From IMG/VR virus record IMGVR_UViG_3300031758_000005: DNA of 64,000 bases; one strand, written 5' to 3'. The first letter of the stretch is position 1; every line of letters starts with the position of its first letter. The notes under the pieces are model-generated. The model did no database searches. It had not been told where the DNA came from and was given only the letters and a program-made list of their open reading frames with translations. Position numbers and translations under genes: made by a program. Below are positions 36,168-39,149 of this stretch, one piece after another. Source of the stretch: a virus. Its lineage: Duplodnaviria > Heunggongvirae > Uroviricota > Caudoviricetes.

Positions 36168-36224
36168 TTGATCTTTGAAAACTTAGTGGTAAGATAAAGA
36201 AGTAGTAAGTATTTGTTCTTTCAG
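36168..36224 (+). promoter_or_regulatory. Stable-RNA promoter unit 1 with boxA-like motif
   Basis: TTGATC-N16-TAAGAT; 25-bp repeat GTGGTAAGATAAAGAAGTAGTAAGT (36186-36210); GTTCTTT at 36215. Confidence 0.65.
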
Positions 36225-36304
36225 CGTGGTGGGAGAAGCACTCCTCTAGAACATCTTTGTATGGTGGAACTGCCTTGGCCTTTAACCAAAGGGGGTCACC
36301 GACG
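36225..36304 (+). ncRNA. Candidate ~80-nt structured RNA
   Basis: Closing stem CGT-GGTG/CACC-G-ACG; hairpins GGAG/CTCC and CCTTGG/CCAA-A-GG; lies directly after a promoter and boxA. Confidence 0.35.
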
Positions 36305-36322
36305 AAAGAATAAAATACTTAG

Positions 36323-36381
36323 TTGACAAAACAAAAAATTGTGGTAAGATAAAAAAGTAGTAAGTAATAGTTCTTTAACAA
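36323..36381 (+). promoter_or_regulatory. Stable-RNA promoter unit 2 with boxA-like motif
   Basis: TTGACA-N16-TAAGAT; repeat GTGGTAAGATAAAAAAGTAGTAAGT (36341-36365); GTTCTTTAACAA at 36370. Confidence 0.75.
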
Positions 36382-36389
36382 ATTTTAAT

Positions 36390-36466
36390 GGCCTTGTAGC
36401 TCAGTTGGTAGTAGCAGAAGCCTTTTAAGCTTTTGGTCGTGGGTTCGAGTCCCACCGGGGCCACCA
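36390..36466 (+). tRNA. tRNA-Lys(UUU)
   Basis: GGCCTTG/CGGGGCC, A-CCA; GAAGC-CT TTT AA-GCTTT; T loop TTCGAGT. Confidence 0.95.
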
Positions 36467-36470
36467 TTTT

Positions 36471-36684
36471 AACTGGTAATAAACGAAGTAAATCATATAT
36501 TGTGGGACAACTACACTTTTAAGTATCGTGATTGATTACGAAAGCATTTTTTCCGTGTAGAATTTGACTTTCATCATTAAACATATTAAATGATTAACCC
36601 AAACACAACTGTGTGCTGTGCTGAAAAATGTCCGCTACACAGCGATGCTTACGTAGATAAGTAACTCAATGAATATTACCAGTT
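36471..36684 (+). ncRNA. Candidate 214-nt multibranched structured RNA
   Basis: Perfect 11-bp terminal stem AACTGGTAATA/TATTACCAGTT; inner stems CTACAC/GTGTAG, TCGTGA/TTACGA, ATCATT/AATGAT, CTGTGT/ACACAG and GCTTA/TAAGT. Confidence 0.6.
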
Positions 36685-36692
36685 CATTTAAC

Positions 36693-36768
36693 GGAGTCAT
36701 CGTCTAACGGTTTAGGATAATTCCCTTTCACGGAATAGATCAGAGTTCGATTCTCTGTGGCTCTACCA
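36693..36768 (+). tRNA. tRNA-Glu(UUC)
   Basis: GGAGTCA/TGGCTCT, A-CCA; ATTCC-CT TTC AC-GGAAT; T loop TTCGATT. Confidence 0.93.
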
Positions 36769-36775
36769 TTTGATG

Positions 36776-36933
36776 TTTGGTTGTATAGCTAAGAAAAACA
36801 ACTTGGTGGAGGGTATATAACCAAAATGCCCCTAGAGTTGGAAGTTCTCTTAAAAAACTTCTTGGTTGCGGGGTTAGCGCATGGTATACTCTGTTTGTTG
36901 GGTGGATAGAGTATTCAATAGATACACCCAACA
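36776..36933 (+). ncRNA. Candidate 158-nt structured RNA ending in an H-type pseudoknot
   Basis: 12-bp stem 36776-87/36814-25; GCCCC/GGGGT enclosing GAAGTT/AACTTC; crossing stems ATACTCT/AGAGTAT and TGTTGGGTG/CACCCAACA. Confidence 0.6.
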
Positions 36934-36969
36934 TAATTTTTAGGATAGTTCTTTATAAACAATTTAAAC

Positions 36970-37043
36970 AGCTGGCGGCAGGTTATTATTTGACGATGGC
37001 TCATAACCATTGGTAACTAAGTGAGATTCTTAGGCGAGCGACC
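36970..37043 (+). tRNA. Degenerate tRNA-like gene, anticodon CAU
   Basis: GATGG-CT CAT AA-CCATT; T arm CTAAG-TGAGATT-CTTAG; A-CCA; two acceptor mismatches and a poor D arm. Confidence 0.5.
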
Positions 37044-37052
37044 ATTTGTAAT

Positions 37053-37124
37053 GGCTGGGGCTTCAGCAAGCAAGATTCTTTCATACGGAATCTTTAATGA
37101 GGGCAGCACTCATACCAGCTACCA
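37053..37124 (+). tRNA. Non-canonical tRNA, anticodon CAU
   Basis: GGCTGGG/ACCAGCT, A-CCA; ATTCT-TT CAT AC-GGAAT; T arm ATGAG-GGCAGCA-CTCAT with no TTC. Confidence 0.55.
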
Positions 37125-37199
37125 TTTATTGTTCCTTGAAATTTTAACTTTTGTGTAAATAAAATGTATTCTTGTTTGGCTCTCTAATATATATTAGAT

Positions 37200-37979
37200 A
37201 TGACAGAAGAAGAATACTTGTTAAATCCAAATAAATGTAATGTTTGTAGTTCTATAATAAAATACAATTCTAGAGCTAGAGAAAGAAATAGAAAATATTG
37301 TAGTTTGCAATGTTTTGCAAAATCAAGGACTATACTCTCTATTGATGATTATGAAAAAAATCCATTAAAATGCTGTGAATGTAATCAGATAATTTTGTTT
37401 TCTAAAAAAAGAAAACGAAAAAAAGTATATTTTTGTGGCAATAAATGTGCGGCTATTTATAGAGGTAGAAACTTTAAGTTAAGTGATGCTGGACTAAAAA
37501 GTTTAATAGAAAAACATAAGGTAATACAGAAGAAAGTTTGGACTAAAGAAAAAAGGTTGGAACATTCATTGAAAATGAAGAAAGCAGTGGATGATAATCC
37601 AGAATCTTATTCTAGTAAAAATGTTTGTGGTAGAGTTAAAACAATTAAGACTATAGATAGTTTAGGTAATGAAACTAGTTGTCTTGGTAAATGGGAATTA
37701 TTGGTAATAGATTATTTAAACAAAAATAATATAAGATGGTCAAATAAGATTGAAGAAAATTTCCAATATTATTGGAATGAATCTTACCACAGATATTTTC
37801 CAGACTTTAAATTATTAGATTATGATAATGTCTTTATTGAAGTTAAAGGATATGAAAGAGATAGAGACAAAGCTAAGTGGGAACAATTTCCACATAAACT
37901 AATAATTATAAAAAAAGAAGAAATTGAAAAGTTAAAAACAAATAAATTTCAGTTGACTTTTGAAAATTTGACACTATAG
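37200..37979 (+). CDS. Free-standing PD-(D/E)XK endonuclease with Cys-rich N-terminal fingers (homing-endonuclease-like)
   Basis: GKWELLV..RYFPDFKL..FIEVKGY..DKAKW; repeated CxxC..YCSxxC modules; inserted within the tRNA array. Confidence 0.75.
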   Translation: MTEEEYLLNPNKCNVCSSIIKYNSRARERNRKYCSLQCFAKSRTILSIDDYEKNPLKCCECNQIILFSKKRKRKKVYFCGNKCAAIYRGRNFKLSDAGLKSLIEKHKVIQKKVWTKEKRLEHSLKMKKAVDDNPESYSSKNVCGRVKTIKTIDSLGNETSCLGKWELLVIDYLNKNNIRWSNKIEENFQYYWNESYHRYFPDFKLLDYDNVFIEVKGYERDRDKAKWEQFPHKLIIIKKEEIEKLKTNKFQLTFENLTL

Positions 37980-38013
37980 TTAGTATATAAGATTTGATGT
38001 TCTTTTAAAAATT

Positions 38014-38090
38014 TGCGGGGTAGATCAACGGAATAGATCGTCCGGCTCATAACCGGAAGGTAGAGTGTTCAATTCACTCCCCCGCTACCA
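38014..38090 (+). tRNA. tRNA-Met(CAU), initiator-like
   Basis: TGCGGGG/CCCCGCT with a 1:72 mismatch, A-CCA; TCCGG-CT CAT AA-CCGGA; T loop TTCAATT. Confidence 0.85.
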
Positions 38091-38096
38091 TTTAGT

Positions 38097-38190
38097 GGTT
38101 CCGTAGTTTAACGGTAGAACGCAACGCTTATAACGTTGATAAGCTCTAGATTTGAGCACGGTCTCGGTTCGAATCCGGGCGGAACCACCA
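38097..38190 (+). tRNA. tRNA with UAU anticodon (Ile) and 24-nt variable region
   Basis: GGTTCCG/CGGAACC, A-CCA; CAACG-CT TAT AA-CGTTG; variable hairpin GCTC-TAGATTT-GAGC; T loop TTCGAAT. Confidence 0.85.
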
Positions 38191-38211
38191 AATTTAGGAA
38201 CTATATCGTGC

Positions 38212-38306
38212 GTAGAGAAACATTAATAATGACTCTACTATTCGTGAAAGTCTAACGGTAACTCTTCCATATCGTAAATGATGGTGCAAATCCATTGGAA
38301 GAACAA
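38212..38306 (+). ncRNA. Candidate RNA with a minimal acceptor + T-arm tRNA-like element
   Basis: Hairpin GTAGAG/CTCTAC, then TCTTCCA/TGGAAGA enclosing an 11-nt linker and ATGG-TGCAAAT-CCAT; ends A-CAA. Confidence 0.4.
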
Positions 38307-38314
38307 TTTTAAAT

Positions 38315-38391
38315 GGCTAGGTAGCCCAAAGGCAGGAGGCAGCACTCTCAAAAAGTGTACAGTGTCAGTTCGAATCTGACCCTAGCTACCA
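38315..38391 (+). tRNA. tRNA-Leu(CAA) with short variable loop
   Basis: GGCTAGG/CCTAGCT, A-CCA; GCACT-CT CAA AA-AGTGT; 5-nt variable loop ACAGT. Confidence 0.88.
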
Positions 38392-38407
38392 TTTTTTGAA
38401 AAAGCAG

Positions 38408-38467
38408 TTGACATCAGAAGATGATGTGGTAAGATAAAAGAGTAGTAAGTGATGGTTCTTTAAACAA
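38408..38467 (+). promoter_or_regulatory. Stable-RNA promoter unit 3 with boxA-like motif
   Basis: TTGACA-N16-TAAGAT; repeat GTGGTAAGATAAAAGAGTAGTAAGT (38426-38450); GTTCTTTAAACAA at 38455. Confidence 0.75.
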
Positions 38468-38472
38468 TTTAT

Positions 38473-38548
38473 GCCTATGTAGACCAACGGCAGAGTCACG
38501 AAACTTAAAATTTCGGTAGTACTGGTTCGAATCCAGTCATAGGCACCA
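38473..38548 (+). tRNA. tRNA-Leu(UAA) with short variable loop
   Basis: GCCTATG/CATAGGC, A-CCA; CGAAA-CT TAA AA-TTTCG; 5-nt variable loop GTAGT. Confidence 0.9.
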
Positions 38549-38574
38549 TTTTTTGATAGTTCTTTAACAATTTA

Positions 38575-38860
38575 AGATAGTGGCGGAACAACCTTTGTAT
38601 AGGGGTAACGCACAATAGTGGTGAAGAATCATTATTGGTTGGAGTAATAATGTGCAGTGTAAGTCTATGGCGGATTGTGGGTCGTACAACCTATAATTCA
38701 AGCGTAACGACATCGTAGCTAAAATAAATGATATATCGTAGGTCGTTGTGGGAAACCAATCCCATCAATCGTTAACATAGAGAGTAATTAACTTTATGGA
38801 TTGTGGATGAATAACGGTGCATATTGTGAAACTTGGAGGTAATCATTAGTCCTTCCTATT
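38575..38860 (+). ncRNA. Candidate ~290-nt structured RNA
   Basis: Follows boxA at 38559; no ORF of 60 aa or more; at least seven hairpins, e.g. GCACA/TGTGC, ATAGTGGT/ATCATTAT, TTGTGGGT/ACCTATAA, AACGAC/GTCGTT and TGGGA/TCCCA. Confidence 0.55.
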
Positions 38861-38871
38861 TGAATTTAAAT

Positions 38872-38944
38872 GCGGGTCAAGTGTAAAGAGGGCACGCTGG
38901 TCTACCAGATCAGAAGGCGAAATGCAAAGTTCGGACCCGCTCCA
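38872..38944 (+). tRNA. Non-canonical tRNA-Gly(ACC)
   Basis: GCGGGTC/GACCCGC with U73-CCA (Gly identity); CTGGT-CT ACC AG-ATCAG; shortened T arm CGAA-ATGCAAAG-TTCG. Confidence 0.7.
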
Positions 38945-38957
38945 GTTTTTTTAAAAT

Positions 38958-39050
38958 GGCTCTGTGATGTATGGTGCATGGGCAGACTTATAATCTGTAT
39001 AATCCCTAGATTTGGGTGCTGATAGGGTTCAATTCCCTACGGAGCCACCA
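38958..39050 (+). tRNA. Second tRNA with UAU anticodon (Ile) and 24-nt variable region
   Basis: GGCTCTG/CGGAGCC, A-CCA; GCAGA-CT TAT AA-TCTGT; variable hairpin CCC-TAGATTT-GGG; T loop TTCAATT. Confidence 0.82.
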
Positions 39051-39073
39051 TTTTTTAAAGTAAAAGTATTTAC

Positions 39074-39149
39074 GGGTCAATAGCTCAATGGTTAGAGCGT
39101 AGAACTCATAATTCTTTGGTTATCGGTTCAAGTCCGGTTTGACCCACCA
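39074..39149 (+). tRNA. tRNA with CAU anticodon (elongator Met or Ile2)
   Basis: GGGTCAA/TTGACCC, A-CCA; TAGAA-CT CAT AA-TTCTT; canonical D and T arms. Confidence 0.92.

Follow-up and report, generated by a model that had tools for sequence, protein, structure and literature searches.

The window analyzed here, a 64,000-nucleotide (nt) stretch of DNA from IMG/VR virus record IMGVR_UViG_3300031758_000005 (Caudoviricetes), represents part of the genome of an uncultured freshwater phage and has a G+C content of about 33%. It encodes a DNA polymerase of family B, a clamp loader, ClpP and virion proteins, as well as numerous sugar-nucleotide enzymes. A cluster of stable-RNA genes occupies positions 36166 to 39149 of the plus strand and comprises three copies of a promoter, six boxA-like motifs, eight canonical and three non-canonical tRNA genes and one open reading frame (ORF). 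Five spacers of this array, designated E1, E2, E3, E5 and E6, had been singled out in a first-pass annotation as far more self-complementary than filler sequence and as likely sources of stable non-tRNA RNAs. Comparison with related loci identified conserved structured RNAs in three of them: E1, the wcaG-like E3 and the manA-like E6, the last of which is also found as a discrete RNA in environmental samples.

Conserved Structured RNAs Between the tRNA Genes

Related arrays were gathered via a neighboring virion gene, via exact conserved motifs in IMG/VR and via the E6 5' motif in JGI metagenomes. Structures were assessed by the share of alignment cells that pair, compared with slid controls, and by the number of compensatory pairs. 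E6 is represented by 55 loci (36 distinct sequences), and its 77 pairs in 13 helices are formed in 99.5% of the cells as against 36–48% in the slid controls. Sixteen of the 77 pairs are altered on both sides, and the covariation score is 0.225 compared to 0.015–0.054 in the controls. The closing helix, in which 38569-80 pairs with 38856-66, and the 3' hairpin are invariant and therefore contribute no covariation evidence.

Homologs of E3 (about 165 nt, 36771-36931) were found at 45 loci, with pairing in 90.5% of cells (36–54% in controls) and eight pairs altered on both sides. Helix P1 occurs in four fully compensatory versions among the homologs, and P1 and P2 show compensatory changes across 15–16 homologs. 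The pseudoknot that forms the 3' domain pairs in 97–99% of cells and shows a compensatory change from C-G to U-A in stem 1. The structure of E3 was set by hand; RNAalifold, applied to a MAFFT alignment, missed P1 owing to one-column register shifts. E1 is a smaller RNA of two hairpin domains, whose 42 loci comprise 13 distinct sequences with a mean identity of 91%; 99% of its cells pair, as against 40–58% in the slid controls, and two pairs are compensatory.

The other two spacers behave differently. E2 is known from only three loci with identical copies, most relatives being devoid of it, and its covariation is uninformative: 12 differences separate it from one distinct homolog, two of them in predicted pairs and both one-sided. 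E5 has homologs in only two near-identical loci. The unusual self-complementarity ascribed to all five spacers was thus borne out for E1, E3 and E6, is weak in E2 (plus-strand fold z-score −1.8) and is lacking in E5 (z-score −0.3). The search for covariation in homologous arrays, which the first-pass annotation had suggested, yielded compensatory changes for E1, E3 and E6.

At Rfam gathering thresholds, only tRNAs are recovered in the array. Transfer-messenger RNA (tmRNA), RNase P, 6S, signal recognition particle (SRP) RNA, GOLLD, ROOL, YrlA and self-cleaving ribozymes have no match in it at E≤10, and E1 has no Rfam match of any kind at this cutoff. Weak matches to YrlA, tmRNA and mascRNA in relatives were rejected, as they fall on tRNAs. 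Apart from matches to tRNA genes, wcaG and manA are the only non-chance Rfam matches in E-value mode; both families are known from T4-like cyanophages. The wcaG model (RF01761) aligns to E3 over its full length with 30.2 bits (E 0.004–0.008) and zero non-canonical pairs, and the three consecutive hairpins P1-P2-P3 of wcaG are present in E3 with support from covariation. An E3 homolog in relative L031 scores 31.7 bits, and that in L003 gives no wcaG match at E≤5. The manA model (RF01745) matches the 5' module of E6 with 14.2–17.2 bits, recurring in three homologs, and aligns there the manA 5' module GUGaCUGAAUAA-hairpin-UAAgGu. A separate local match (9.5 bits) places manA model positions 161–182 on the 3' hairpin of E6 at 38834-38855, which lies directly ahead of the 3' strand of the closing helix, as in the manA model (UGugGGUA..AAUCCcaC). 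Another placement of the manA 3' hairpin, at 38749-38770 within a match spanning 38565-38775, was discarded as the wrong stem-loop, the hairpin at 38834-38855 being the better fit. The covarying helices in the middle of E6 are arranged unlike those of manA.

Models of the window RNAs were also run on 8 kb of cyanophage S-CREM1. The top match of the E3 5' domain model (R1, unfiltered), at 3746-3845 with 11.7 bits and an E value of 0.067, coincides with the bona fide wcaG of this phage (3746-3843, 92.7 bits by Rfam). The top match of the E6 5' module model (R2), at 4231-4337, lies in register inside the bona fide manA (4216-4430, 96.6 bits), where the model aligns the corresponding module. Reciprocal scores of this size (about 11 bits) are no better than chance: the model of E1 (R3), of which no homolog was found in the 8 kb, reaches 12 bits inside a peroxiredoxin coding sequence. 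Position rather than score is taken as evidence, because this control model and runs on T4 give similar scores at unrelated places. The case for a likeness to wcaG and manA therefore consists in two top matches that fall in register on the expected elements. On these grounds, E3 is considered a wcaG-like variant to which a pseudoknot has been added. E6 is considered an expanded variant of the manA type, in which the ends of the fold are those of manA but the middle differs and P1 is missing. Neither RNA is a strict family member.

The proposal that the array represents an undescribed system does not stand in that form. Although the families suggested for comparison (including GOLLD, ROOL and YrlA) are absent at E≤10, two of the RNAs resemble wcaG and manA by sub-threshold, reciprocal best matches with agreeing gene order, and precedents exist in T4 and S-CREM1.

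Two short elements recur among these RNAs. The motif UGGYG(G) is repeated in E1, E3, E4a (one of the non-canonical tRNAs) and E6 and also occurs in the wcaG and manA consensus sequences of Rfam; conceivably, it is a tertiary or protein-binding element common to these phage RNAs. An AU-rich leader, AAUUU(U)AA(A/C), precedes almost every module, whether tRNA or other RNA. In S-CREM1 (L039), an intergenic segment just upstream of wcaG (3648-3739) contains CCUGGUGGAG and further UGG-rich pieces and ranks third among the matches of the E3 model (6.9 bits); it might represent a further RNA module that has escaped annotation.

RNA Evidence and Head-to-Tail Junctions

Assembled contigs of four metatranscriptome runs from four studies (X15–X18) were compared with window positions 34000-41000. 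E6 forms a contig of its own in X16, X17 and X18, extending from 38570/72 to 38861/66, and thus accumulates as a discrete RNA of about 295 nt in natural samples. The k-mer depth of these contigs (204, 257 and 274, with about 3–20 in the flanks) is only suggestive of high abundance, as it is a single figure per contig and a poor measure of abundance, and the contrast is overstated by the under-representation of tRNAs in RNA sequencing. Another 14 RNA runs, drawn from six or more studies, contain most of E6; the manA-like RNA accumulates by itself in lake, river and estuary samples. In X15, E6 is present in its ordinary linear genomic context only.

In X16 and X18, the contigs of E6 form closed cycles that return after 293–294 nt; their lengths of 326 and 323 nt equal one unit with about k-1 added. 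Past 38869, the sequence runs on into the 5' start of E6 in X16 and X17, in X17 as a loose end. E2 likewise cycles in X16 and X17, with a return after 219 nt (36686 to 36468) and a contig of 249 nt (219 + 30), and one RNA contig omits exactly the 219 nt of E2, as do most relatives. No such cycle was found for E1 or E3 in the RNA contigs. E5 and positions 37042-37275 have little or no RNA-contig cover, which is not counted as absence.

At the E6 junction, ...CUAUUUGAAUUUAA is followed directly by GAUAGUGG..., and both junctions lie within 6-nt direct repeats (ATTTAA for E6, TTTAAC for E2) that are copies of the AU-rich leader. Neither junction sequence was found in a search of 2.9 million contigs of viral DNA. 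The E6 5' motif was inspected in 65 DNA copies, of which 60 follow a boxA, none follows the 3' end of E6 and none is in tandem. As far as checked, the joined form is thus confined to RNA. It is possible that the head-to-tail junctions represent circles or concatemers, an artefact of template switching at the terminal repeats, or rare tandem DNA variants. No paper describing circular RNAs from the tRNA arrays of phages turned up in full-text literature searches. A separate joint was seen in an X17 RNA contig with a depth of 757, in which 35297-35324, the 3' end of a tRNA-like sequence, is joined to 38834 in the 3' hairpin of E6, with 28 nt on one side; this may reflect another arrangement in a relative, or a repeat.

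Promoters, tRNA Genes and Neighboring Genes

The features of the array are listed in Table 1. A 65-nt repeat occurs three times (starts at 36166, 36321 and 38406) and contains a sigma-70-type promoter, TTGAC-N16-TAAGAT, followed by GTTCTTTAACAA. Copies 2 and 3, with an extended −10 TG, are flagged by a promoter scan; copy 1 is weaker and was not flagged. The boxA-like sequence GTTCTTTAA has six plus-strand matches in the array with at most one mismatch, as against about 0.9 expected from its density across the window, and three of them lie at a fixed distance downstream of the three promoter copies. BoxA motifs are known from rRNA operons, and the array shows the arrangement of rrn-type boxA elements, with the consensus on the transcribed strand downstream of a promoter.

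Table 1. Positions in the window of the features of the stable-RNA array and of related elements; positions in relatives are marked as such.
Feature	Position	Strand	Basis or remark
Promoter copy 1 (TTGATC-N16-TAAGAT)	36168..36195	+	Repeat family D2, first 65-nt repeat copy
boxA-like motif 1 (GTTCTTTCA)	36215..36223	+	
E1, conserved RNA of ~75 nt, two hairpin domains	36226..36305	+	
Promoter copy 2 (TTGACA-N16-TAAGAT, TG extension)	36323..36350	+	Repeat and promoter scan
boxA-like motif 2 (exact GTTCTTTAA)	36370..36378	+	
tRNA-Lys(UUU)	36390..36466	+	ARAGORN, Rfam
E2, optional 219-nt module, 11-bp closing stem, flanking TTTAAC direct repeat	36468..36692	+	Candidate RNA
tRNA-Glu(UUC)	36693..36768	+	ARAGORN, Rfam
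E3 5' domain, wcaG-like three-hairpin RNA	36771..36876	+	
E3 3' domain, H-type pseudoknot	36886..36931	+	36886-92 pairs with 36908-14; 36898-904 pairs with 36925-31
boxA-like motif 3	36948..36956	+	
E4a, non-canonical tRNA(CAU)-like, aberrant 5' half (UGGCGGCAGG)	36970..37044	+	ARAGORN, relaxed threshold ps90 only
E4b, non-canonical tRNA(CAU)-like, 4-nt D loop, T loop GGCAGCA	37053..37124	+	
Optional 259-aa ORF	37200..37979	+	Single sizeable ORF within array
boxA-like motif 4	37999..38007	+	
tRNA-Met(CAU)	38014..38090	+	ARAGORN, Rfam
tRNA-Ile(UAU), long extra arm	38097..38190	+	
E5, spacer	38191..38314	+	Unsupported as structured RNA
tRNA-Leu(CAA)	38315..38391	+	ARAGORN, Rfam
Promoter copy 3	38408..38435	+	Repeat and promoter scan
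boxA-like motif 5	38455..38463	+	
tRNA-Leu(UAA), intron-free	38473..38548	+	
boxA-like motif 6, immediately 5' of E6	38559..38567	+	
E6, manA-like RNA of ~295 nt, 13 helices, ATTTAA direct repeat at bounds	38569..38869	+	
E7, non-canonical tRNA-Gly(ACC)-like, 4-bp T stem, 8-nt loop	38872..38944	+	
Second tRNA-Ile(UAU), long extra arm	38958..39050	+	ARAGORN, Rfam
tRNA-Met(CAU)	39074..39149	+	ARAGORN, Rfam
AU-rich leaders	36380-36389, 36687-36692, 36962-36969, 38306-38314, 38569-38575, 38864-38871		
UGGYG(G) motif	36231, 36262, 36806, 36866, 36973, 38581, 38620, 38671		
Sugar-nucleotide genes and SpoU-type RNA methylase	6484-7521, 16943-18058, 27708-30366, 33075-33617		
Group I intron in tRNA-Leu(UAA) of relatives	L003 11131-11323; L015 518-710; L027 1810-2002	− (L003)	

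ARAGORN and Rfam concur on eight canonical tRNAs between 36390 and 39149. Together with E4a, E4b and E7 these amount to the 11 tRNA-like genes counted in the first-pass annotation, whose three promoter copies (now placed within the 65-nt repeat), six boxA-like motifs and single credible ORF are confirmed as well. Part of what had appeared as spacer, about 36955-37130 and 38870-38945, proved to be non-canonical tRNA. At the position of E4a, some relatives carry a canonical tRNA-CAU instead. The cloverleaf of E4b pairs in 94% of cells with compensatory changes in 4 of 21 pairs, that of E7 in 100% with 5 of 19, and 13 of 14 sequences of E7 share the anticodon loop CUACCAG. Deviant D or T loops are common to E4b and E7.

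In both tRNA-Ile(UAU) genes, the extra arm is about 19 nt long and its loop, UAGAUUU, is conserved; a long extra arm is usual only in Leu, Ser and Tyr tRNAs. In several relatives, a group I intron (Rfam 74.8 bits) interrupts tRNA-Leu(UAA), as in cyanobacteria. Upstream of the array, a weak tRNA-like gene at 35242-35322 (Rfam 31.4 bits; Leu-UAA by ARAGORN at relaxed threshold only) displays a CUGGCGGGG motif in its D region and is separated from the array by a reverse-strand ORF without family match (35325-36050).

The 259-aa ORF has no Pfam or PHROG match and is carried by only some relatives. Its N-terminal repeats are rich in cysteine and a C-terminal PDF...EVK pattern recalls PD-(D/E)XK nucleases; it is possibly a free-standing homing-endonuclease-type gene, and its position in the array corresponds to that of segB in the T4 tRNA cluster. 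Among the relatives the arrays are mosaic, with individual modules gained or missing from one to the next. Such gain and loss, as in the exact 219-nt insertion or deletion of E2, occurs at the AU-rich leader repeats, which suggests that these serve as both processing sites and recombination points.

At the DNA level, a blastn search of 50,697 phage records revealed no close cultured relative, the matches being only tRNA-sized. The sugar-nucleotide genes comprise a GDP-mannose 4,6-dehydratase, several epimerases, an RmlD-like protein and a nucleotidyl transferase. A SpoU-type RNA methylase is encoded about 1.6 kb upstream of the tRNA-like gene at 35242 and 2.5 kb upstream of the array.

Interpretation

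The array is probably a modular stable-RNA gene cluster, in which E1, E3 and E6 are conserved structured RNA genes, released from tRNA precursors and acting in trans. Their status as RNA genes is shown by conservation in 42–55 related loci with compensatory changes. In this model, the three sigma-70-type promoters would drive plus-strand transcripts, each promoter being followed by a boxA and further boxA motifs lying inside the units, and boxA-dependent antitermination would sustain the synthesis of long stable-RNA transcripts. The modules would be cut from the precursor by the tRNA-processing machinery, with RNase P acting at the 5' end of the downstream tRNA and both endo- and exonucleases acting past the preceding CCA, together with cuts at leader repeats or in the closing helix. 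A staggered RNase III-type cut in the closing helix of E6, right after the boxA, would yield a 294-nt unit. The released RNAs would then act in trans as stable folded RNAs rather than as riboswitches. E6 most likely functions by self-assembly into an RNA particle, an analogy drawn from the decamers and cages reported for manA and the cages of GOLLD and ROOL (see below).

Several observations weigh against this interpretation. E3 (30–32 bits) does not reach the wcaG gathering score of 42 bits, nor does E6 (14.2–17.2 bits) reach the manA gathering threshold of 55.2 bits. The P1 hairpin of manA is missing from E6, a boxA being found at that place, and the central junction domain of manA with its GUGGUG hairpins is unmatched, the alignment containing large deletions and insertions and many non-canonical pairs. 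E2 is rare, weakly supported and a candidate RNA only, and E5 folds no better than shuffled sequence. The depth of the E6 contigs is subject to the two limits given above. The processing enzymes, the role of boxA and the functions of the RNAs are all inferred. The earlier proposal that the phage co-produces non-tRNA stable RNAs with its tRNAs is accordingly retained in part: such RNAs are encoded, are interleaved with the tRNA genes and, in the case of E6, accumulate discretely, yet good support is confined to three of the five spacers.

For E5, and perhaps E2, there is an even chance that they are non-functional, being decayed tRNA remnants or recent filler spread by recombination between leader repeats. 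E5 contains D-loop-like and acceptor/T-arm-like pieces by eye, its 3' half resembling a minihelix of the acceptor/T-arm type, and could represent a decayed tRNA; its fold and its restriction to two near-identical loci agree with this. The exact 219-nt insertion or deletion with TTTAAC flanks that defines E2 in its three loci points in the same direction, but E2 possesses an 11-bp closing stem and is represented by RNA contigs in two runs. It is improbable that the structured spacers in general are cis elements, either riboswitch-like leaders or processing stalks and antitermination structures serving tRNA maturation only. Both wcaG and manA have been classed as cis-regulatory (Weinberg et al., 2010, PMC2864571; S-CREM1 paper, PMC9964418), and the closing helix of E6 starts directly past a boxA, like an rRNA processing stalk. 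Yet tRNA genes rather than ORFs lie downstream of E3 and E6, there is no terminator or ribosome-binding platform (the region's single terminator-like site lies within E2 on the other strand), sequence conservation extends from the stems to the loops and junctions, and E6 appears in several RNA studies as a separate contig far above its flanks.

The head-to-tail junctions allow two readings, for each of which the analysis stops somewhat short of even confidence. E6 and E2 could be circular RNAs, in which the closing helix joins the ends and an RNA ligase, possibly the Rnl-type enzyme of the relatives, seals them, leaving the junction as a 7-nt loop on the closing helix. The closed cycles of E6 (X16, X18) and E2 (X16, X17), with the loose end in X17, agree with this, as do the absence of the junctions from viral DNA contigs and the lack of any tandem copy among the 65 DNA occurrences. 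Moreover, in a 173-kb relative the array is accompanied by an RNA ligase that combines an oligonucleotide-binding (OB) fold with PF09414, and three other array-bearing contigs have a ligase as well. On the other hand, the window has no ligase gene, a nick-sealing ligase is a poor fit for open helix ends, X15 shows E6 in linear form only, and the evidence comes from assembled contigs rather than reads. The junctions may equally be artefacts and E6 and E2 linear processed RNAs, a tentative view: they fall in 6-nt terminal repeats, precisely where reverse-transcriptase template switching between abundant linear molecules would arise, and such repeats are expected, given that an AUUUAA leader recurs ahead of every module. 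A de Bruijn assembler closes a cycle from few junction reads if no competing branch survives, and rare tandem DNA could also have been collapsed in assembly. Against an artefact speaks that the same cycle was obtained in separate studies, that it concerns two unrelated elements and neither E1 nor E3, and that no DNA contig inspected contains a tandem copy.

The ligase of the 173-kb relative (L087, 1012-2019) has an N-terminal PHA02142 OB fold followed by PF09414, and an ATP-dependent DNA ligase is encoded directly after it (2298-3395). No RNA ligase, RtcB or Pnkp domain was detected among 40 window ORFs scanned, and no RtcB in relative G001. An involvement of the relatives' ligase in the joining of E6 and E2 is speculation. 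As a tentative extension, the tRNA array could be a production line for circular non-coding RNAs, in which E6 and E2 are excised at the AU-rich leader or the closing helix, ligated and abundant, and might form particles of the manA type. If true, these would be the first phage-encoded circular non-coding RNAs made by excision and ligation, and the 'riboswitch candidates' of the manA class would be recast as trans-acting, possibly circular, structural RNAs.

Comparison with Known Systems

The occurrence of non-tRNA RNAs among phage tRNAs is a known phenomenon, exemplified by T4 and S-CREM1. New at this locus are the freshwater, expanded form of a manA-like RNA, the wcaG-like RNA with its pseudoknot, E1, and the boxA-punctuated layout. 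A further novelty, absent from the literature searched, is evidence from environmental RNA for E6 as a discrete and abundant species that shows head-to-tail junctions. For the building of families, the locus adds E1, the pseudoknot extension of E3, the expanded manA form and three tRNAs with rewired elbows.

In T4, the gene order is tRNAs, segB, tRNA-Arg, rnaD and rnaC. The RNAs rnaC (species 1) and rnaD (species 2) are co-transcribed and processed with the tRNAs. Like the RNAs of the window, they are small stable RNAs without an assigned function that stand in line with tRNAs, beside a homing endonuclease gene. They differ in being two RNAs at the end of the cluster, whereas those of the window are interleaved with the tRNAs, and models R1, R2 and R3 do not match them (L106, 1409-1672), there being no detectable likeness in sequence or structure; the two are related by analogy only.

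Circular RNAs generated by excision and ligation, such as archaeal rRNA, C/D-box sRNA and tRNA-intron circles, share with E6 and E2 a helix formed by the RNA's own ends, excision from a stable-RNA precursor and a head-to-tail junction. In contrast, E6 and E2 lack a bulge-helix-bulge motif and belong to a bacterial phage, and their circularity is proposed only.

The families wcaG and manA take their names from sugar-nucleotide genes and have figured as candidate riboswitches for 15 years. The window agrees with wcaG in its phage context with sugar-nucleotide genes and tRNAs and, within E3, in the identical order of the hairpins, the UUU stretch ahead of P1, the A-rich loops, the UGGUG linker after P1 and the UGG-rich tail after P3. 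The linkers match only in part, those of E3 being UGGUG-GA, CUAGAGUU and UGGUUGCGGGG as opposed to UGGUGCGGA, CCugGUUU and GUGGCGaGcc in wcaG, so that UGGUGGA stands against UGGUGCGGA and CUAGAGUU against CCugGUUU. E3 also adds the highly conserved 3' H-type pseudoknot, which lies outside the wcaG model.

As for manA, the E6 5' module AGUGGCGGAACAA-hairpin-GGUAACGC corresponds to manA aGUGaCUGAAUAA-hairpin-ggUAAgGu, and a closing helix, a GUGGUG loop and a 3' hairpin (UGGAGGUAAUCAUUAGUCCUUC) abutting the 3' strand of the closing helix are common to both. The sugar-nucleotide genes of the window phage include a GDP-mannose dehydratase and epimerases. E6 is found in a phage with T4-like genes, after a tRNA-Leu in a tRNA array, as in S-CREM1, where the order is wcaG, tRNA-Met, tRNA-Leu, manA, tRNA-Asn, abiF and tRNA-Gly, with 0–1 nt between manA and the flanking tRNAs (GenBank record); in the window, the preceding gene is tRNA-Leu(UAA). 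By comparison with manA (about 190–215 nt), E6 is longer (about 295 nt), has a central multi-helix domain that is built otherwise, lacks the P1 hairpin and is preceded by a boxA. It occurs in freshwater phages, whereas manA is found in marine cyanophage or Photobacterium, and head-to-tail RNA junctions, seen for E6, are unreported for manA.

GOLLD and ROOL are cage-forming phage RNAs, often near tRNA islands (10.1101/2024.12.08.627333), and manA RNAs are reported to self-assemble into decamers and a 60-subunit cage (cryo-EM preprint of 2026, 10.64898/2026.07.01.735769). The RNAs of the window resemble GOLLD and ROOL as ornate, abundant phage RNAs in such a setting, but the latter measure 500–800 nt or more and belong to other families, without an Rfam match in the array. 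Both here and in S-CREM1, the RNAs of the wcaG and manA types sit between tRNA genes without an ORF to regulate. This is consistent with the view that manA, together with GOLLD and ROOL, forms part of a class of tRNA-accompanying phage RNAs that act as free, self-assembling particles.

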